From contig NZ_JHXR01000047.1 in assembly GCF_000621645.1 (NCBI RefSeq), positions 1 through 6,763 of the forward strand: a stretch of DNA of 6,763 nucleotides. Direction: 5' to 3'. This document shows positions 1-6,763 of this stretch, in pieces. The position numbers and the translations under genes were made by a program. The notes under the pieces were generated by a model. The model saw only the letters and a program-made list of their open reading frames with translations. It had not been told where the DNA came from and did not search any database. How positions within the stretch are numbered: position 1 is the stretch's first letter; each line of letters opens with the position of its first letter. This stretch comes from Vibrio cholerae ATCC 14035 (GTDB lineage Bacteria; Pseudomonadota; Gammaproteobacteria; Enterobacterales; Vibrionaceae).

Positions 1-231
1 CAGCTTCTTTTTCAATTCCCGAATTTCTATTTGCTCAGGGGTCATAGGTGAAGCTTTAGGTGTTTTCCCTTGGCGTTCTTCTCTAAGCTGGCGAACCCAT
101 TTATCCATCGTGGACTTGCCCACATTCATGGCTTGGGCTGCTTCCGTCACTGAGTAATTTTGGTCTAAGACTAGCTGCGCTGCTTCTAACTTAAATTCTG
201 CGCTAAATAGTCGTCTTGTACGTTTTGTCAT
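1..231 (-). CDS. IS3-family transposase OrfA (HTH part), 5' portion, open to the window edge
   Basis: Own translation from ATG 231-229 gives [77 protein letters not shown] with no stop down to position 1. The pattern FSAEFK...[32 protein letters not shown] is what I recall for IS911-like OrfA. It is absent from the ORF track because it is truncated by the window. Confidence 0.85.
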
Positions 232-290
232 AATGTCACCTGTTAACTTATGAGGTGATGATATCACCTCTAACTAAGTGACCAAATTCA
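1..290 (-). mobile_element. Left end of an IS3-family insertion sequence (partial; continues beyond window start)
   Basis: On the minus strand the element starts 5'-TGAATTTGGTCACTTAG (290 down to 274). The TG start and TGAAnTGGTCA-like terminus resemble IS911/IS3-group terminal inverted repeats. It is followed by a leader hairpin GAGGTGAT/ATCACCTC (252-259/263-270, 3-nt loop), an AGGTGA SD (236-241) and the OrfA ATG at 231. The boundary at 290 is inferred; the other end is outside the window. Confidence 0.7.
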
Positions 291-298
291 CTATGCCA

Positions 299-568
299 CT
301 ACAACTTTCGCCCATTTGGGTATGCGTGAGAGGCTACACCTTTAGCTAAACTACGACAATCACTGCAGTAGCTTTGATAACCATCAGGGTTACGAGCTGT
401 CACTCGTGCAGGAGTTTTTCCAAATGAAGATGGATATGAATGAAAAACATGTTCTCCGCCATTGGCATCTGAACAGTGAGGGCAAGACTTAAATTTCTGT
501 CCAGTCTTGGGGTCTGATTTATGAATTGTTCCTACGTTTAGGCGTTTTCCACAACAACTACATGCCAT
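299..568 (-). CDS. Cys-rich small protein (three CxxC-type pairs, zinc-ribbon-like), function unknown
   Basis: 89-aa ORF with ATG at 568 and a GGAGA SD (574-578) 5 nt upstream. Cysteine pairs are CSCC (aa 3-6), CPHC (29-32) and CSDC (68-71). It is co-oriented with the cassette array. No family was recognised with confidence. Confidence 0.65.
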   Translation of the reverse strand: MACSCCGKRLNVGTIHKSDPKTGQKFKSCPHCSDANGGEHVFHSYPSSFGKTPARVTARNPDGYQSYCSDCRSLAKGVASHAYPNGRKL

Positions 569-654
569 AACTGTCTCCTATAAAAATCTTAGGCACAGAA
601 ATCATAAGGGAAAATCAATATGCAAACCGAGACCTATGCATGCAATTTGTAACC

Positions 655-777
655 TAACGCCCGCCTAAGGGGCTGACAACGCATTACCACTAAACTCAAA
701 CACAACAACTGCAACCACCGCGGCTCATTGGGACTGGAAACGCCACGCGTTGACAGTCCCTCTTGAGGCGTTTGTTA
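655..777 (-). repeat. attC site, VCR class (copy 1, 123 bp)
   Basis: Plus strand reads TAACGCCCGCCTAAGGGGCTGACAACGC...CGCGTTGACAGTCCCTCTTGAGGCGTTTGTTA. The ends are imperfectly complementary (R''/L'' versus L'/R'). The minus strand starts with TAAC (inverse core) and ends with GTTA (core GTTRRRY). Confidence 0.95.
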
Positions 778-785
778 TGTGCGTG

Positions 786-1199
786 CTATTGATGAGCCTT
801 GTTCAACTCCAAAAGATCCCATTTGTTTCCATAAAGATCTTGGAACACAACCACTGTCCCATACTCTTCTACTCGTGGTTCTTCATTAAAAACAACACCC
901 TTGGTCTTCATCAACTCATAATCTCGCCAGAAGTCATTCGTTTGTAGAAACAGAAAAACACGACCTCCAGTCTGATTACCTACAAATTGAGCTTGTTCTT
1001 CGGTACTTGCTTGAGCAAGAAGTAGGTTCGTTCCATTCGAGTTTGGCGGCGAAACTTGAACCCAACGTTTACCACCACCCAAATCGGTATCTTCAACTAA
1101 ACTGAACTGAAGCTTTTTTGTATAGAACTCAATGGCATCATCGTAGTTTTCTACGACAAGTGCGATATTGCCGATTTGCTGTTGAACGACTTTAGACAT
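786..1199 (-). CDS. VOC (glyoxalase/bleomycin-resistance/dioxygenase) superfamily protein
   Basis: 137-aa ORF. It has the beta-alpha-beta-beta-beta style sequence typical of the family (IGNIALVVENYDDAIEFYTKKLQF...; ...YGTVVVFQDLYGNKWDLLE at the C-terminus). Weak GAGAAG SD lies 5 nt upstream of ATG 1199. It sits alone between two attC sites. Confidence 0.85.
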   Translation of the reverse strand: MSKVVQQQIGNIALVVENYDDAIEFYTKKLQFSLVEDTDLGGGKRWVQVSPPNSNGTNLLLAQASTEEQAQFVGNQTGGRVFLFLQTNDFWRDYELMKTKGVVFNEEPRVEEYGTVVVFQDLYGNKWDLLELNKAHQ

Positions 1200-1263
1200 G
1201 CTGACTTCTCAAGATTTCAAAAGCTGAATTCTACACTACTTCGAGATTTTTCGAGAAAGCACA

Positions 1264-1385
1264 TAACGCCCGCCTAAGGGGCAGGCAACGCATAACACTA
1301 AACTCAAACACAACAACCATAACCACCGCAGCTCATTGGGACTGGAAACGCCACGCGTTGACAGTCCCTCTTGAGGCGTTTGTTA
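1264..1385 (-). repeat. attC site, VCR class (copy 2, 122 bp)
   Basis: Same repeat as copy 1, with variants GGGGCAGGC and CCGCAGCTC. The central part is CATAACAC instead of CATTACCAC. Confidence 0.95.
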
Positions 1386-1898
1386 TGCGGTTAATAGCTT
1401 AGACATGTACAGCTCATTAACATACTCACCATCGACAACCAGAGAATGGCGCTTTAAACCCTCAACTTCAAAACCACATGATTCATAAAGCCTTTTAGCT
1501 CTCTCGTTGTGCTGCATTACGGTCAACTCTAGCCGGCTATATCCATGAGAAATCGCCCAACCTTCAAGCTTGTTTACTAATTCTTTTCCAAATCCTTGGC
1601 CTGTAACAGCTTGGAGAAGGCCAATGACCAAAGACATGCAGTGTTTATTGCGATTGGCTGTATTACCTACACCGACAATGAAACCAAAAGCCTTTTCATC
1701 ATTGGTCAGTAAATATATCACCTTATTAGATGAATCATTGAATGAGTGAATAATTTGGATTTGCTGCTCCAGTGTGGTTGTCCTTTCTTCTGGTTCAAGC
1801 AGCATGAATTTAGACTCTCGATCTAATTGGTACATTAATGACAATACTGACTCTGCATCTTCGACTGTTAATTTTCTAATAATCACTTTTTCATCCAT
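1383..1898 (-). CDS. GNAT-family N-acetyltransferase
   Basis: 171 aa from ATG 1898 (MDEKVIIRKLTVEDAE...). The acetyl-CoA motif region is LLQAVTGQGFGKELV, followed by NERAKRLYESCGFE. The track ORF (to 1976) begins at a GTG inside the attC and is an artefactual extension. The TAA stop (1383-1385) is the TAA of the attC inverse core. Confidence 0.9.
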   Translation of the reverse strand: MDEKVIIRKLTVEDAESVLSLMYQLDRESKFMLLEPEERTTTLEQQIQIIHSFNDSSNKVIYLLTNDEKAFGFIVGVGNTANRNKHCMSLVIGLLQAVTGQGFGKELVNKLEGWAISHGYSRLELTVMQHNERAKRLYESCGFEVEGLKRHSLVVDGEYVNELYMSKLLTA

Positions 1899-1913
1899 GC
1901 TCAAATAACTGCA

Positions 1914-2035
1914 TAACGCCCGCCTAAGGGGCTGACAACGCATAACACTAAACTCAAACACAACAACCGTAACCACCGCGGCTCAATGGGACTGGAAACG
2001 CCGCGCGTTGACAGTCCCTCTTGAGGCGTTTGTTA
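1914..2035 (-). repeat. attC site, VCR class (copy 3, 122 bp)
   Basis: Same repeat, with variants CTGACAAC, CTCAATGGG and ACGCCGCGCG. Confidence 0.95.
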
Positions 2036-2036
2036 G

Positions 2037-2065
2037 TTGCCCTACCCCAACACCAGTGCTAACAT
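2037..2065 (+). promoter_or_regulatory. Putative sigma70 promoter of the reverse-oriented TA operon
   Basis: TTGCCC (2037-2042), 17-nt spacer, extended -10 TGcTAACAT (2057-2065). It starts 2 bp after the attC end and lies about 27 nt upstream of the ATG. Hexamer matches are only moderate. Confidence 0.35.
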
Positions 2066-2091
2066 TCGTACACACAACAAAGGAGCTCACC

Positions 2092-2376
2092 ATGGATACT
2101 AGAATTCAATTTCGTGTAGACGAAGAAACAAAACGTTTAGCTCAACAAATGGCTGAAAGCCAAGGTCGAACTCTTAGCGATGCTTGCCGTGAACTCACTG
2201 AACAATTAGCTGAGCAGCAACGCAAGGCATTATCTCACGATGCATGGCTAACTGAACAAGTGAATCAAGCATTTGAGAAGTTCGACTCAGGAAAAGCAGT
2301 ATTCATTGAACATGACATCGCCAAAGCACGAATGGCTGAACGTAAAGCTAAAATCCGAAATCGAGGCCACGCATGA
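2092..2376 (+). CDS. Type II antitoxin, ribbon-helix-helix (RelB/DinJ/ParD-like)
   Basis: 94 aa from ATG 2092 (MDTRIQFRVDEETKRLAQQMAESQGRTLSDACRELTEQL...), which is an RHH N-terminus. AAGGAG SD (2080-2085) lies 6 nt upstream. The stop overlaps the toxin start (ATGA at 2373-2376). The track ORF start at 2008 is a TTG inside the attC. Confidence 0.8.
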   Translation: MDTRIQFRVDEETKRLAQQMAESQGRTLSDACRELTEQLAEQQRKALSHDAWLTEQVNQAFEKFDSGKAVFIEHDIAKARMAERKAKIRNRGHA

Positions 2377-2651
2377 TTTTCTGGGAAGAAGCATCTCTCA
2401 ATGATCGTGAGAAAATTTTCGAATTTCTCTACGACTTTAACCCAGCAGCGGCTAAAAAAACGGATGAGCTCATAGAAGCCAAAGTCGAAAATTTGCTTGA
2501 GCAACCACTAATCGGTGTTCAGCGTGATGGCATTAGAGGCAGATTGCTTATTATCCCTGAGATATCAATGATTGTTTCGTATTGGGTTGATGGTTCTAAA
2601 ATTCGAATAATGCGTGTACTACATCAGAAACAAAAATTTCCAAACGACTGA
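2373..2651 (+). CDS. Type II toxin, RelE/ParE superfamily
   Basis: 92 aa: MIFWEEASLNDREKIFEFLYDFNPAAAKKTDELIEAKVENLLEQPLIG...IVSYWVDGSKIRIMRVLHQKQ. This is the typical ParE/RelE plasmid-stabilisation layout (I.W...A..D...I..., P.aA, P.iG, Y....I.I.RVLH). It is translationally coupled to the upstream antitoxin. Confidence 0.85.
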   Translation: MIFWEEASLNDREKIFEFLYDFNPAAAKKTDELIEAKVENLLEQPLIGVQRDGIRGRLLIIPEISMIVSYWVDGSKIRIMRVLHQKQKFPND

Positions 2652-2670
2652 TTTGTTGCTGATTGGCAAC

Positions 2671-2792
2671 TAACGCCCGCCTAAGGGGCTGGCAACGCAT
2701 AACACTAAACTCAAACACAACAACTGCAACCACCGCGGCTCATTGGGACTGGAAACGCCACGCGTTGACAGTCCCTCTTGAGGCGTTTGTTA
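2671..2792 (-). repeat. attC site, VCR class (copy 4, 122 bp)
   Basis: Same repeat, close to the consensus of the nine copies. Confidence 0.95.
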
Positions 2793-3185
2793 GCTGCGTT
2801 TTTGAACATTGTCACCTTTAGTTTCGATAACAAAATTAACTGAGCGCTCAATTTCAGAGGTGCTCTCAACGTTTTTAATAATTAGCTTTTCTGATATTGA
2901 AACGTGGATATGCATTTCACGTCCCTGTTCTTTAGCTCTAGCCTTAGCGCTAAATATTTTATCGAATACTTTTGATATGTAGTAAACACTCAAGCCTGCA
3001 ACGACATTGGCACCGATAGAAATTAGAACTTCCGTCACTGCGGGGGCGGAAAAACCCTCAGATACATTTAGAGAGAGATCGTGTTCTCTAAATTCGCTGA
3101 ATTCGGACTGGTAAACATCATCGAAAAACTCTTTACCTGGACCCACGACTAAAATTTTTAGTGAGTTCTGGTCATAATCGTTCAT
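2790..3185 (-). CDS. Hypothetical 131-aa protein with one central hydrophobic (possible transmembrane) segment
   Basis: Strong SD AGGAG (3191-3195) lies 5 nt upstream of ATG 3185. The N-terminus is acidic, the hydrophobic stretch is VLISIGANVVAGLSVYYI, and the C-terminal half is charged. The TAA stop is supplied by the attC. No family was recognised. Confidence 0.7.
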   Translation of the reverse strand: MNDYDQNSLKILVVGPGKEFFDDVYQSEFSEFREHDLSLNVSEGFSAPAVTEVLISIGANVVAGLSVYYISKVFDKIFSAKARAKEQGREMHIHVSISEKLIIKNVESTSEIERSVNFVIETKGDNVQKRS

Positions 3186-3202
3186 TTTTTCTCCTGAGCA
3201 AC

Positions 3203-3325
3203 TAACGCCCGCCTAAGGGGCTGGCAACGCACTACCACTAAACTCAAACACAACAACCATAACCACCGCGGCTCAATGGGACTGGAAACGCCACGCGTTG
3301 ACAGTCCCTCTTGAGGCGTTTGTTA
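3203..3325 (-). repeat. attC site, VCR class (copy 5, 123 bp)
   Basis: Same repeat, with central variant CACTACCAC. Confidence 0.95.
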
Positions 3326-3335
3326 GTTTCGTAGC

Positions 3336-3358
3336 CCATTGTTTACCAATGGTTTTTT
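3336..3358 (+). terminator. Intrinsic-terminator-like hairpin plus T6 tract, plus-strand polarity
   Basis: CCATTG (3336-3341) pairs with CAATGG (3347-3352) across a 5-nt loop, followed by TTTTTT (3353-3358). The stem is short and AT-rich, and the T tract is on the strand antisense to the cassette array. The function is uncertain. Confidence 0.3.
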
Positions 3359-3739
3359 AACACCTTTACTTGAAAAGCATTTTACGCAAATGCATCTTAC
3401 AAGCACACGTCCAACACCAAAAGCTGTGAAGCAAGCTACCAAAACTTAAAACGATCAAGGTTAAGTTGGCCACTGTTAATAGTCCGCGACAAAGAAAACC
3501 AGATCACAGCGATGATGCTGCCTTTTGTGAGACTAAGCTGACCGCGCTGAACACCCAACAACGTTGAAGCATCTTGACTTGTTGGCTTGCGGCGACTTTG
3601 AAACTACTGCGTTTTCAACGCTTTCTGCCAAATCAGCATCAAGCAAAACTCAAAAGCCAACTTGTGAAATTTGGATACTAAAAGCTGCATGTTTAATGCA
3701 AATGAGCTTAGATTTTGATGATTTTTGATTGAGAGAAAC

Positions 3740-3862
3740 TAACGCCCGCCTAAGGGGCTGGCAACGCACTACCACTAAACTCAAACACAACAACTGCAAC
3801 CACCGCGGCTCAATGGGACTGGAAACGCCACGCGTTGACAGTCCCTCTTGAGGCGTTTGTTA
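3740..3862 (-). repeat. attC site, VCR class (copy 6, 123 bp)
   Basis: Same repeat. It differs from copy 5 only in the variable central CAACTGCAACC / CAACCATAACC segment. Confidence 0.95.
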
Positions 3863-4381
3863 TATGCGTGGTTCCTTGTTTGCCACTGTTCTATCTTTCG
3901 CTAGTTCGATGACGGCGTGCCCTAACTGAACTAGTGTGCCAAAGTTTGGCGTTGTTTCTGGCTTCAAGGAGCGATAAGCACTCGTACGACTTTTTATACC
4001 CGCCTTTGCAATAACTTGACCATGACCAAACTGCTCTACGTAAGAACGAATAGCCGCTTGCAAGATGTCGGGACGCCCCTCCATCATCGATTCCCATGAG
4101 GCCTGTTTGATGACGGCTTCCATTTCTTGAACATTAAAACTTAACTCCACCGACTTTTGTGAGCCCTTGGTTATGTCACGGAGTGTCGCGGCCGTTAACT
4201 CATTACCATCCCAATTTAACGAGCCATCACGAGTCAAGGAAAAGCGTTTAAAGTCCTTAATTTCTGAAAACGGTGCTTTTTTAAAGTATACCGACAAGTC
4301 GGCATAGCCTTGGTAACCATCATTGAACGTCAGTTCTAATGTATGGTCTGAGACAAAATCAACATCTATGACTTTCAACAT
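3860..4381 (-). CDS. DUF2442-like N-terminal domain fused to a C-terminal HigA-like 'addiction module antidote' HTH domain (candidate antitoxin/regulator)
   Basis: 173 aa. The N-terminus VIDVDFVSDHTLELTFNDGYQGYADLS fits my recollection of DUF2442. The C-terminal GRPDILQAAIRSYVEQFGHGQVIAKAGIKSRTSAYRSLKPETTPNFGTLVQLGHAV parallels the recalled consensus of HigA-type antidote proteins (GDPallaaAL..IA.a.Gm.qlA...Gl.R.sLY.aLs..gNP.f.T.lkvl.AlG). The ATG (4379-4381) overlaps the upstream gene's stop (ATGTTGA). The TAA stop lies in the attC. Confidence 0.75.
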   Translation of the reverse strand: MLKVIDVDFVSDHTLELTFNDGYQGYADLSVYFKKAPFSEIKDFKRFSLTRDGSLNWDGNELTAATLRDITKGSQKSVELSFNVQEMEAVIKQASWESMMEGRPDILQAAIRSYVEQFGHGQVIAKAGIKSRTSAYRSLKPETTPNFGTLVQLGHAVIELAKDRTVANKEPRI

Positions 4382-4644
4382 AAATCACCTAACTTACCTG
4401 GATTTTCACCATTCACCGCTTTATTCCACATCACCATCAATTGCTCTCGATGTTCAAGAATATGGTTTTCAGCACGTTTTCGTTGCTTATTGGGTAAGTA
4501 ACCCTCTAAACACTCACCTGTTTCAATAGCAATAATTAGCTCGTAACTACCGTACTTAACGTGAATATGAGGTAATTTATGCTGCTTGTTATCAAAGAAG
4601 TACAAGCAAAATGAAAGACCTAATAGGGCATCAATCTCTGGCAT
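4375..4644 (-). CDS. DUF4160-like protein (candidate toxin/effector partner)
   Basis: 89 aa from ATG 4644 (MPEIDALLGLSFCLYFFDNKQHKLPHIHVKYGSYE...). It shows the MP... start and the DH/H.PH.H..YG motif I associate with DUF4160. AGAGG SD lies 5 nt upstream. The track start (GTG 4650) is 2 codons longer and less likely. Confidence 0.75.
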   Translation of the reverse strand: MPEIDALLGLSFCLYFFDNKQHKLPHIHVKYGSYELIIAIETGECLEGYLPNKQRKRAENHILEHREQLMVMWNKAVNGENPGKLGDLC

Positions 4645-4663
4645 AGCCACCTCTAGTTCATCG

Positions 4664-4702
4664 CTCTAAAGGGACTATAGCAGCGTATCCTTTAGGAGAC
4701 AA
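4664..4702 (-). promoter_or_regulatory. Putative sigma70 promoter with flanking inverted repeat (operator-like) for the DUF4160/DUF2442-HTH operon
   Basis: On the minus strand: TTGTCT (4702-4697), 17 nt, TATAGT (4679-4674). The inverted repeat CCTAAAGG / CCTTTAG(A) (plus coordinates 4689-4696 and 4666-4672) brackets the -10 element. Confidence 0.45.
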
Positions 4703-4716
4703 TTCCTATAAGCATA

Positions 4717-4838
4717 TAACGCCCGCCTAAGGGGCTGGCAGCGCATACTACTAAACTCAAACACAACAACCGAAACCACCGCGGCTCAATGGGACTGGAA
4801 ACGCTACGCGTTGACAGTCCCTCTTGAGGCGTTTGTTA
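4717..4838 (-). repeat. attC site, VCR class (copy 7, 122 bp)
   Basis: Same repeat, with variants GGCAGCGC, CATACTAC and ACGCTACGCG. Confidence 0.95.
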
Positions 4839-5435
4839 TGTTTGTGGTTCTGAAACGGCTACTCTTTCATTTTTTCTAATGTAGATCAGATGGTTATTAT
4901 AAAACTCACTTTCAACATAACCATGCTGGAGAGCTTTCTTGTAAATTGACGCTACAAAAATATCCGCAAGACTAAAAGTCCGACCAATAATAAAACCTGA
5001 TTCATTACAAATCGTCTGACTTAACTTATCAAGACACAGCATAATCCACTCTCCCCGAACTTTCCGTTTGGATGTTTCATCTAGGTCGGGCCTAAAAAAG
5101 TTAAGCACAGTTCGGTTTTGAGGTGAATGAATACTGGAGTTCACGTATTCACAAACTGAGCGGATTTTTGTTTTTTCCTCAAGACTTTGACCTAGCAATG
5201 GACTCGTTGGAAATCGCTCTTCGAGGTATTCGGCAATAGCCATTGACTCAGTAAATACTAGACCATCAACTAACAACGAAGGCACATAGCCAAATGGATT
5301 CATCACACGATAAGTCGTAGCAAGGTCGTCCGAGCTAACTTCAATTCGTTCGTACGGGATACCTTTGAAATTAAGCATCCATTCAACCCTTTCTGAGCTG
5401 TTGGAACCCTTTGCGCTATAAAGTGACAAGTCCAT
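4836..5435 (-). CDS. Glutathione S-transferase family protein
   Basis: 199 aa from ATG 5435 (GGAG SD 5 nt upstream). The N-terminal thioredoxin-like GST domain is LYSAKGSNSSERVEWMLNFKGIPYE...NPFGYVPSLLVDGLVFTESMAIAEYLEERFP. The track ORF (to 5516) is an extension into the attC. The TAA stop lies in the attC. Confidence 0.88.
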   Translation of the reverse strand: MDLSLYSAKGSNSSERVEWMLNFKGIPYERIEVSSDDLATTYRVMNPFGYVPSLLVDGLVFTESMAIAEYLEERFPTSPLLGQSLEEKTKIRSVCEYVNSSIHSPQNRTVLNFFRPDLDETSKRKVRGEWIMLCLDKLSQTICNESGFIIGRTFSLADIFVASIYKKALQHGYVESEFYNNHLIYIRKNERVAVSEPQT

Positions 5436-5452
5436 TTTAACTCCGAAAAACA

Positions 5453-5574
5453 TAACGCCCGCCCAAGGGGCTGGCAACGCATTACCACTAAACTCAAACA
5501 AAACAACCATAACCACCGCGGCTCATTGGGACTGGAAACGCCACGCGTTGATAGTCCCTTTGAGGCGTTTGTTA
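5453..5574 (-). repeat. attC site, VCR class (copy 8, 122 bp; most divergent copy)
   Basis: Same repeat but with CGCCCAAGGGG (T to C), CAAACAAAAC, GTTGATAGTCC (C to T) and CCCTTTGAGG (1-bp deletion relative to CCCTCTTGAGG). These fall in the normally invariant arms. Confidence 0.9.
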
Positions 5575-5584
5575 GTTTTGGGCG

Positions 5585-6382
5585 CTAGGAAGAAAATTTA
5601 TCTACCAATTTTTGTAGATTATGAGCAGTTGGACGAGACTTTAGCTTTTTGATACCACTTCGAGTCGAAACCTGATGGATACAATTATCAAAGTAGTCAT
5701 GAATTGCTTTGTAGTCTGCTTTAACGGTAGGCTCACATTCATAATGAGCTAGCCTTCCAAAAAGACCACACAGCCAATCTGCACATTGAACCGTTTGATA
5801 TAAATGGCTTTCGACTTGTACTGGAGGTTCTATCAAGCGATAACGAGCATCATCACCAAACATTGCAACAGATGCAGTTTCAACAATTTCACCACGGAGA
5901 ACGTTTTCTTCTTGCTGATCTAGAATAAGCATAAACTTTGCGTCACGCTGTTCACACTCTTGATCAATACACTTTATGACTTCCCTTAATACAGAGTGAT
6001 AAAGTCGCTTGGAATCATGGCCATCAACTCTCCTCTCTTTTTCAATACCGACATAAATTATAAAGCCTCCAGATGCTTTTACCTTATTTAGTAGCCGAAA
6101 AGTCGCCTGCCTTAACTGTCGATATTTGGTAACATTAGTCACAGTGTATAATGAAGCGCCTTTCTTTTCCCACTTTGCAGGGTGAATGCCGCTATTTTTT
6201 AGCTCGTAGTCTAGCAGGCGATTCTTAAGCTGGTAGAAGTATGTCGAGAATTTTCTAACTTCTGTATAAGGTAGGACAACTCCACCCAACCCAAATACAG
6301 GATGTGTTTTGTGGCTTTTGTCGGTAGAAGACAAGTAAGGGCCGATGTGACCAAATTCGTCAAGATATACAATGTAAAGCAA
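5585..6382 (-). CDS. DUF3800-like protein, function unknown
   Basis: The reading frame is open from 6457 (GTG, 290 aa). The preferred start is TTG 6382-6380, with a GGAGG SD (6391-6395) 8 nt upstream, giving 265 aa that begin MLYIVYLDEFGH. The DE motif at the extreme N-terminus and QCAD (QxxD) near the C-terminus (..HLYQTVQCADWLCG..) match my recollection of the DUF3800 (PF12686) signature. Confidence 0.75.
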   Translation of the reverse strand: MLYIVYLDEFGHIGPYLSSTDKSHKTHPVFGLGGVVLPYTEVRKFSTYFYQLKNRLLDYELKNSGIHPAKWEKKGASLYTVTNVTKYRQLRQATFRLLNKVKASGGFIIYVGIEKERRVDGHDSKRLYHSVLREVIKCIDQECEQRDAKFMLILDQQEENVLRGEIVETASVAMFGDDARYRLIEPPVQVESHLYQTVQCADWLCGLFGRLAHYECEPTVKADYKAIHDYFDNCIHQVSTRSGIKKLKSRPTAHNLQKLVDKFSS

Positions 6383-6475
6383 TTTACCAGCCTCCAGATA
6401 CACGAAAGCTCGACCATTAATGTCGAGCCTCGGAAGTGGAGCGCTTCGTGAAACCACGCCTCGCGTCCCACTAAG

Positions 6476-6504
6476 AATTTAGTACTTTGAGCATCTGAAG
6501 TCAA
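6476..6504 (-). promoter_or_regulatory. Putative sigma70 promoter of the DUF3800-like cassette
   Basis: On the minus strand: T-rich tract, TTGACT (6504-6499), 17-nt spacer, TAAATT (6481-6476). It lies immediately downstream of the attC copy 9 crossover. The leader of about 90 nt contains the hairpin GCTCGAC/GTCGAGC (6408-6414/6422-6428). Confidence 0.5.
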
Positions 6505-6512
6505 GAAAAAAC

Positions 6513-6634
6513 TAACGCCCGCCTAAGGGGCTGGCAACGCATACCACTAAACTCAATCACAACAACCGTAACCACCGCGACTCATTGGGACTGGAAACGC
6601 CACGCGTTGACAGTCCCTCTTGAGGCGTTTGTTA
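6513..6634 (-). repeat. attC site, VCR class (copy 9, 122 bp)
   Basis: Same repeat, with variants CATACCAC, CTCAATCAC and CCGCGACTC. Confidence 0.95.
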
Positions 6635-6763
6635 GGTTTGTGCTACGAAGCTCATGTAGTAATAACCACCCAATTCATCATCCACTTGCGACACAATTTC
6701 AAAACCTTGCGACAAATAAAAGTTGAGTGCTTTTTGATTTTGAACCATGCACTTAAGGCTTAA
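6632..6763 (-). CDS. 3' end of a GNAT-family acetyltransferase gene (partial, start beyond window)
   Basis: Own translation in the frame aligned to 6763 gives LSLKCMVQNQKALNFYLSQGFEIVSQVDDELGGYYYMSFVAQT*. This is the classic GNAT C-terminal motif (N..A..FY...GF). The stop is the attC TAA (6632-6634). Confidence 0.6.
   Translation of the reverse strand, partial: LSLKCMVQNQKALNFYLSQGFEIVSQVDDELGGYYYMSFVAQT

Follow-up and report, generated by a model that had tools for sequence, protein, structure and literature searches.

What does a gene of the DUF3800 family do in the cassette array of an integron, and what sets the level of its expression? The question is raised by a 6,763-nucleotide (nt) stretch of Vibrio cholerae ATCC 14035 (contig NZ_JHXR01000047.1, positions 1 to 6,763; here called the window, to which coordinates refer unless another locus is named), which is part of the V. 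cholerae superintegron and carries on its minus strand a cassette encoding a protein with the DUF3800 domain. A reading made from the sequence alone (the sequence-only reading) had described this gene as a self-promoted, single-gene element with a candidate undescribed function in defence or addiction. The overall best explanation, held here with a probability of roughly 0.65, is a self-contained and self-promoted nuclease-toxin module whose output is set by a leader RNA.

The long open reading frame (ORF) at 5585-6457 (minus strand) encodes 290 amino acids (aa) when read from a GTG and 265 aa when read from the TTG at 6382-6380. Among the first 40 homologues about two thirds have the N-terminus MLY[IVLC][AVLI]Y[LIMF]DE[FY]GH, and TTG 6382 is therefore taken as the real start; a 265-aa form is also annotated at NCBI in the seventh-pandemic strain KW3. 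The protein contains the motifs LYIVYLDEFGH (D8/E9), LILDQQEE (D155) and QTVQCADW (Q199/D202), and in an alignment of 79 homologues with 49-78% identity D155, Q199 and D202 are invariant while D8 and E9 are at least 90% conserved. The features of the coding part are as follows.

6391-6395, minus strand: Shine-Dalgarno sequence GGAGG, 8 nt 5' of the TTG start codon.
5585-6382, minus strand: DUF3800 / RNase HII-like protein of 265 aa from TTG, identified by ORF, Pfam, homologue starts and structural model.
6361-6359 (D8), 6358-6356 (E9), 5920-5918 (D155) and 5779-5777 (D202), minus strand: candidate catalytic codons, from conservation and the model.

Pfam assigns the protein to DUF3800 (PF12686) with 60.3 bits, where the cutoff is 21, and an E-value of 4.6e-16, over profile positions 1-148 of 149. 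No other Pfam family matched, the NCBIfam search gave no match and a sequence-profile search against the PDB matched no entry. PHROG 26069, to which no function is assigned, matches at 1e-97, whereas PADLOC 2.0 returned only PDC-M04A, a weak match (E 8.5e-4) over 60 of the 232 positions of its profile. The subfamily is of modest extent, with 466 clusters (50% identity, E <= 1e-3) and 414 matching stretches in a species-representative genome collection of 185,579 species. An AlphaFold2 model calculated from the 79-homologue alignment (pLDDT 92.6, pTM 0.87) finds its best solved structural match in the RNase HII of M. jannaschii (PDB 1EKE; probability 1.0, E 4e-4, TM 0.44/0.51), followed by far weaker matches to RNase HI and RuvC. 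In the model D8/E9 end the strand formed by residues 2-10, D155 ends the strand 149-155 and D202 lies within the helix 196-216, which corresponds to the arrangement in 1EKE, where neighbouring D and E residues close strand 1, one Asp closes a later strand and a further Asp sits in the following helix. D8, E9, D155 and D202 would thus occupy the places expected of an RNase H-type DEDD set and are predicted to cluster. The likeness has its bounds, as identity to 1EKE is only 13-14% (TM 0.44-0.52), the DUF3800 protein has extra helical insertions, and the RNase HII sequence models of Pfam, NCBIfam and the PDB profiles do not match it. DUF3800 proteins have been called RNase H-like in two earlier papers (including Mestre et al. 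2020); what appears to be new for this gene is a confident model of RNase HII type in which all four acidic residues are intact. On the strength of the model and of these conserved residues the protein is most likely a two-metal-ion nuclease, acting, we infer, on RNA or RNA-containing duplexes.

The type VII retron effector shares the Pfam domain, is likewise paired with a structured nucleic acid and has been modelled on RNase H2 (Mestre et al. 2020). In these retron proteins the Q of QxxD is missing and the acidic set is DEED, whereas the family in the window keeps Q199 and has the invariant D155 at the presumed equivalent position. No ORF of reverse transcriptase size is present in the window, where the neighbours are GST, GNAT and toxin-antitoxin (TA) genes. 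Much of what the sequence-only reading had said of the protein holds up: its ORF with the two alternative starts and the GGAGG was recovered, with homologue starts favouring the 265-aa form; its DE and QxxD motifs stand at the positions given and are conserved across the 79 homologues; its assignment to DUF3800 clears the Pfam cutoff by a wide margin; and the nuclease-like acidic active site it suspected gains support from the proximity of the model to 1EKE.

The annotated N-terminal extensions of some homologues read the same upstream nucleotides in differing frames, which was a first sign that conservation here concerns the DNA and not a protein sequence. Upstream stretches of 160 nt were compared for 80 homologous genes of Cyanobacteria, four proteobacterial classes, Acidobacteriota, Deinococcales and Armatimonadota. 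These stretches have in common a unit that begins with a TTGAC-type -35 element, a -10 box, the sequence GRGRCGC and a variable hairpin, and continues with CYCUNWUUCCGAGG, a GC-rich hairpin, CUUUCGYGUUU and the ribosome-binding site. In the window the unit takes the following form.

6499-6504, minus strand: -35 hexamer TTGACT, its position conserved in homologous loci.
6476-6481, minus strand: -10 hexamer TAAATT, with transcription predicted to start about 7 nt farther 3', near 6469.
6398-6471, minus strand: two-hairpin leader RNA motif of about 70 nt, found by covariance model R1 with 33 bits and E 2e-5 in a 1.17-Mb search.
6436-6471, minus strand: helix P1, in which GGA-C-GCG pairs with CGC-UCC around a conserved bulged C.
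6403-6432, minus strand: helix P2, with a lower stem in which CGAGG pairs with CUU(U)UCG around a bulged U, and an upper stem at 6408-6428.

The sequence-only reading had noted a leader of roughly 90 nt with a 7-bp hairpin. That hairpin (GCUCGAC-AUUAAUG-GUCGAGC) is present exactly at 6428-6408, where it forms the upper stem of P2, and is thus one part of a larger, conserved two-hairpin motif. The apical part of P1 varies in the family, the version in the window being CGUG-GUUU-CACG, and all eight modelled P1 pairs have changed on both sides across the family. When RNAalifold is applied to a plain MAFFT alignment, P2 is recovered with its closing CGA/UCG pairs and the bulged U, and six of ten pairs show compensatory changes. 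A covariance model built from 19 gapless sequences gave one match per locus in a search of 73 loci (1.17 Mb), lying on the strand of the gene and 5' of it in 72 of the 73, and found no second full-length copy of the motif in these 1.17 Mb. In the alignment based on this model (71 sequences) 96.6% of cells are paired, compared with 82.1% in shuffles and 39-50% in slid controls; changes on both sides occur in 16 of 20 pairs and in 183 cells where 42.6 are expected, values reached by none of 500 shuffles. As this alignment is fitted to the model it favours pairing, and the MAFFT result serves as the independent check.

Conservation is distributed unevenly over the motif. All 71 sequences keep the CGA/UCG pairs of the lower stem without change, and both bulges (C and U) and the adjoining UUC and YG are likewise fixed across phyla, whereas the upper stem of P2 covaries freely. 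G-U pairs are conserved, at one position in 58 of the 71 sequences, and the structure therefore lies on the mRNA strand. The tail that follows P2 (UUUCGUGUUU) keeps its richness in U even in GC-rich genomes. The motif also stands upstream of plasmid and phage homologues with 42-51% identity, and a weak match (19.8 bits) precedes a homologue with 27% identity; in the Providencia copy an otherwise invariant A-U pair of the lower stem is replaced by G-C. In nearly all of the 72 loci it is directly upstream of the gene, and over the loci its distance from the start codon ranges from 45 to 134 nt. The largest of these distances belongs to Achromobacter pestifer (locus L079, 9815-9867, plus strand), where the motif lies 134 nt before the start codon compared with about 45-76 nt elsewhere and the region immediately before the gene is without a motif.

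The promoter-like site in front of the motif (TTGACT-17-TAAATT, 6504-6476) matches the consensus at 9 of 12 positions, which taken alone is at the level of chance (two such sites in the region against 2.5 expected). Across the homologous loci, a site of at least 9/12 is found at 27 of 72, compared with 2.46 in shuffles (maximum 8), and in 39 of the 51 loci that score at least 8/12 the -10 box ends 3-6 nt 5' of the conserved RNA. Transcription should therefore begin at the foot of P1, which in the window would place the start near 6469 and give a leader of about 87 nt. A promoter of its own that frees the gene from the integron promoter Pc, as the sequence-only reading had argued, is supported by this position conserved across phyla.

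The whole window gave no match in Rfam 15 at E <= 1, positions 6370-6520 gave only chance matches at E <= 10, and seven other homologous loci gave none at the gathering score. Judged by these searches the conserved two-hairpin leader appears to be new, as no Rfam 15 family fits it. Structured RNAs are familiar companions of DUF3800 genes, near which eleven unrelated examples (DUF3800-I to -XI) have been described (Weinberg et al. 2017). They are likewise covarying and tightly tied to DUF3800 genes, and a terminator-like 3' hairpin is a further shared feature; DUF3800-I is rarely located in the 5' untranslated region, whereas the motif in the window is normally a 5' leader on the strand of the gene. 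Rfam 15 holds DUF3800-I and DUF3800-IX, with RF02969 and RF02968 among the DUF3800 motifs; the search sets the present motif apart from the RNAs included in Rfam, and it could still be identical with one of the described motifs that Rfam lacks.

A toxin role for the protein comes from the identity of the gene. More than 3000 assembly blocks of V. cholerae, classical O395 among them, encode the identical protein, with a gene order of MazG, Phd/ParE, esterase, Y1 transposase, GNAT fragment, DUF3800 and GST, followed by DUF4160, DUF2442, DUF645, a 131-aa ORF, a reversed ParE-family pair, GNAT and glyoxalase. This fits the N16961 locus tags VCA0485 to VCA0506, among which VCA0485 is mazG, VCA0489 ParE-like and VCA0493 the IS1004 transposase, followed by VCA0497, VCA0498, VCA0504 (relB), VCA0505 (acetyltransferase) and VCA0506 (glyoxalase) (PMC4032106). 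Because the gene orders match, the ORF in the window is taken to be N16961 VCA0495, a gene that was also recovered in a promoter-trap screen for biofilm-repressed genes. A CRISPRi paper (PMC11492475, citing Krin et al. 2023) describes the system TA18 as consisting of "the vca0495 toxin gene" with "two antisense non-coding RNAs", and the passage on TA18 in that paper mentions neither DUF3800 nor an RNase HII-like fold nor a leader RNA. By synteny TA18 is the same gene and cassette in the V. cholerae superintegron, near VCA0497/0498 (dhiTA) and VCA0503/0504 (relBE). The function would then be partly known already, with the gene as the toxin of a published TA system, so that the addiction proposed by the sequence-only reading was right, while "undescribed" and "single-gene" do not stand, since TA18 includes RNAs and the gene in addition travels with its conserved structured leader. 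Silencing of both antisense RNAs is reportedly lethal, and the toxin is said to be without a characterised homologue and possibly to cause mRNA degradation.

TA18 belongs with the type I toxin-antitoxin systems. Type I toxins are typically small membrane peptides, whereas the DUF3800 protein has 265 aa, is predicted to be globular alpha/beta and is apparently soluble. Antisense promoter-like sites within the gene are weak (8/12), and no conserved elements are embedded in the coding region, whose four-fold degenerate sites hold about 0-0.4 bits along the whole gene and mostly stay below 0.2. The V. cholerae antisense RNAs are therefore not conserved in sequence across the family, unlike the leader.

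Taken together, the module is proposed to work as follows. Its own sigma-70 promoter would start transcription at the foot of the 5'-terminal hairpin P1, followed by P2 with its invariant lower stem and U-rich tail, the ribosome-binding site and finally the coding region of the 265-aa DUF3800 nuclease. In V. cholerae this toxin, presumably VCA0495, would be restrained by the two antisense RNAs of the literature and the module would act as an addiction element that helps to keep the cassette array stable. The leader most likely sets the amount of toxin that is made. In the preferred version the protein would recognise or cut the invariant lower stem of P2 in its own mRNA and so exert negative feedback, possibly together with partial termination at P2. 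The contrast between the fixed lower stem, bulges and UUC/YG and the freely covarying upper stem points to sequence-specific recognition, and since the module moves among very different hosts the simplest recogniser would be its own protein; a possible alternative is universal machinery, for instance RNA polymerase acting at a tuned terminator.

Several points weigh against this explanation. To our knowledge no biochemical activity has been reported for any DUF3800 protein, and the identity with VCA0495 is deduced from gene order. The folding z-score of the leader in the window is modest (-2.2) and a terminator scan does not call P2. The association of leader and gene also has exceptions, which emerged from a pattern-first scan in which the P2 core pattern was searched and the downstream genes were then inspected. 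In viral contigs a homologue directly follows the motif in three of five occurrences, and in metagenomes a homologue starts within 250 nt downstream in 84 of 121, with six more cut by contig ends, leaving 31 of the 121 without an intact homologue downstream. Three of the 31 are visibly decayed DUF3800 genes; about 15 belong to one lineage that has a convergent Abi_2 gene instead of DUF3800. At a further locus (L135, 13333-13396, minus strand) a strong leader (71.7 bits) with a ribosome-binding site precedes a weakly matching HEPN-like gene. Occurrences of this kind speak against the idea that the DUF3800 protein strictly recognises the leader. The link between leader and DUF3800 gene is strong, not absolute, and the swaps involve other toxin-type genes.

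The exceptional loci have features of their own. Members of the Abi_2 lineage (L085 7087-7147, plus strand; L087 1525-1585, minus strand; and about 15 metagenome loci including L107, L110 and L122) carry the motif at 49 bits, the convergent abortive-infection-like Abi_2 gene ends about 20 nt past it, and the sequence downstream is common to all copies. In L135 an ORF of 162 aa starts 71 nt after the leader and matches HEPN with an E-value of 0.003, under the Pfam cutoff; the locus appears to be a gene swap behind the retained promoter and leader, just past the ribosome-binding site. A 3.9-kb metagenome contig (L154) has two leader copies 1.9 kb apart (936-998 and 2815-2883, both minus strand), only one of which is followed by a DUF3800 gene.

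How the leader would act is the least settled part of the explanation, and the readings considered are not strictly exclusive. A cis-acting autoregulatory or attenuating element ranks highest, tentatively and at somewhat less than even odds. It is followed by a generic expression device, in which a protective 5' hairpin and an attenuator keep a toxic gene low without any recognition by its own protein. P1 beginning at the predicted 5' end of the transcript, a U-rich tail after P2 even in GC-rich genomes and a leader preceding the HEPN-like gene of L135 are all consistent with such a device, which is nevertheless doubtful, as CGA/UCG pairs without exception in 71 sequences and a UUC and two bulges conserved across phyla go beyond the needs of stability. 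Lower still ranks the reading of the leader as a trans-acting RNA partner or antitoxin of the nuclease, comparable to type III systems. P2 would then end most transcripts and yield an abundant RNA of about 70 nt that binds and silences the protein, until a stop in transcription, for example upon phage infection, lets the RNA decay and frees the nuclease. The succession of promoter, structured RNA, GC-rich hairpin with U-rich tail and toxin gene resembles the order generally known from ToxIN, whose toxin is a presumed nuclease as well, and leader copies survive without a DUF3800 gene. Several DUF3800 RNAs are followed by terminators and DUF3800-I occurs on either side of its gene and in either orientation, which suggests action in trans (Weinberg et al. 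2017). In contrast to type III ToxIN, the leader is a single structured unit rather than a set of tandem repeats, none of which are found in 5400-6763, and the protein fold is unrelated; as P2 is not called as a terminator and the published antitoxins, in the passage on TA18, are the antisense RNAs and not the leader, the trans-acting reading is unlikely. A switch that would let the 3' strand of P1 (CUCCA) engage the ribosome-binding site in an alternative pairing is very unlikely. When the full leader of the window is folded at minimum energy, GCGCUCCA does pair with UGGAGGC around P2; against the switch, accessibility of the ribosome-binding site over 72 leaders is alike for full-length (0.46), 5'-truncated (0.44) and shuffled (0.44) sequences (p = 0.41 and 0.51), and the distance of 45-134 nt from motif to start varies too widely to suit it. 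With no systematic effect in the 72 leaders the switch is rejected as a feature of the family; it could still work in V. cholerae alone. That the leader represents a new class of DUF3800-associated RNA, a cognate partner bound or cut by the RNase HII-like toxin, is an idea that must be regarded as clearly less probable than its opposite.

The contexts of the homologues bear on a possible role of the module in defence. In the P2-like Aeromonas phage phiO18P a homologue lies between the replication genes and the ogr/portal genes, a position which we take to be the accessory slot of old and tin in P2, a defence-gene hotspot. On a Providencia IncC plasmid a homologue is inserted within a prophage tail-gene block as a moron, and on a Pseudomonas plasmid one has a Tn3/PIN-RHH/recombinase block on one side and the kfr stability genes on the other. 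Altogether 21 plasmids carry homologues, and the accessory phage slot, the prophage tail module and the plasmid stability contexts appear to be new. Eight Sphingomonas, Sphingobium and Sphingomonadaceae assemblies (L026-L032 and L070) are identical over the 160 nt before the gene and over its first 36 coding nt; three of these loci were compared and have the same pattern of neighbouring ORFs, and two S. paucimobilis plasmids (H6 and H7) carry homologues as well. The sphingomonad identity points to recent spread on a shared element. No conserved partner gene was found, as the 128 neighbouring proteins of 64 loci span 134 Pfam families; the commonest is McrBC (4 of 128), and pAgo, ShosA, PsyrA, IetA and SduA occur once each.

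On such contextual grounds, which do not amount to a statistical test, a phage-defence role is plausible, and anti-phage abortive infection may even be the main role rather than array stabilisation, a reading judged to fall a little short of an even chance, with the proviso that both roles can coexist. It draws on the phiO18P slot, the prophage-tail moron, McrBC and the other defence neighbours, on the involvement of Abi_2 and HEPN-like genes in the swaps behind the leader and on published reports that DUF3800 domains accompany retrons, Cas12a2/a3 and Cas13; it is held back by the ordinary nature of most neighbours, by the weakness of the PADLOC match and by a literature that yielded no phage test of the gene. 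A screen of 88 unknown-function cassettes of N16961 found 16 systems of which none is DUF3800 (Darracq); as VCA0495, a known TA cassette, may not have been among the 88, the screen is unusable as an argument against defence. A housekeeping RNase H-type repair enzyme, which the resemblance of the fold to RNase HII might suggest, is highly improbable: the RNase HII sequence models remain unmatched, the distribution is patchy and mobile, over cassettes, plasmids and phages, and the gene is described as a toxin in the passage on TA18.

The surroundings of the gene are those of an integron array. The window has eight near-identical Vibrio cholerae repeat (VCR) attC cores, on the minus strand and 0.5-1 kb apart, and the DUF3800 cassette is delimited as follows.

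5456-6515, minus strand: complete integron cassette of 1060 bp, between the two G/TT crossover points at 6516/6515 and 5456/5455.
5456-5574, minus strand: attC (VCR) of the DUF3800 cassette, a diverged copy, found by VCR repeat search.

With one attC, a G/TT boundary at both ends and the orientation of the array, 5456-6515 is an integron gene cassette. The interval that the sequence-only reading had proposed as the largest cassette fits it exactly, by G/TT points and VCR spacing, and at 1060 bp it is the longest in the window, the remaining VCR spacings being 533-976 bp. Its attC is the only VCR of the window missed at <=3 mismatches over the first 48 nt; it carries CTCAAAGGGACTATCAACGC where the other VCRs of the window carry CTCAAGAGGGACTGTCAACGC. 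The divergence may reduce the rate at which the toxin cassette is excised. Within this attC lies a second promoter-like site (TTGCCA-17-TATGTT, 9/12; 5449-5477, minus strand), directed into the GST cassette and, taken by itself, at chance level.

Other cassettes of the window also hold TA genes. Overlapping genes for DUF4160 (91 aa) and DUF2442 (173 aa) share one cassette at 3860-4650 (minus strand) and by synteny would be VCA0497/VCA0498, toxin-antitoxin genes of the dhiTA type. On the plus strand, opposite to every other cassette gene, positions 2008-2651 encode an antitoxin (ORF of 122 aa) and a toxin of the ParE/RelE family (92 aa), which are probably VCA0504/VCA0503 (relBE). Counting this pair, three TA cassettes stand close together in the window. 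A 537-bp cassette at 3278-3862 (minus strand) has as its sole annotated product a 41-aa DUF645 peptide (3436-3561) and is effectively gene-less.

What the analysis adds is an assignment to an RNase HII-like fold in which the acidic set is intact and, most of all, the conserved leader RNA. For the biology of integrons, it means that this stabilising cassette would be an imported, ready-made unit of promoter, leader and gene rather than a gene that lacks a promoter and relies on Pc. DUF3800 proteins accompany retrons, Cas12a2/a3 and Cas13 loci as well as eleven unexplained structured RNAs, and the window joins a member tested for toxicity (VCA0495) to an RNase HII-like model and to a covarying leader that is found across phyla, plasmids, phages and an integron cassette. 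The leader thereby ties an experimentally tested toxin to the unexplained DUF3800-associated RNAs, and the question of what these RNAs do becomes approachable by simple experiments in a model organism. If the leader is indeed the cognate partner of the protein, the DUF3800 RNAs as a whole would regulate, or act as antitoxins to, a widespread group of RNase H-like toxin and defence nucleases, and VCA0495 would provide a genetically tractable model for both the RNAs and the nucleases.

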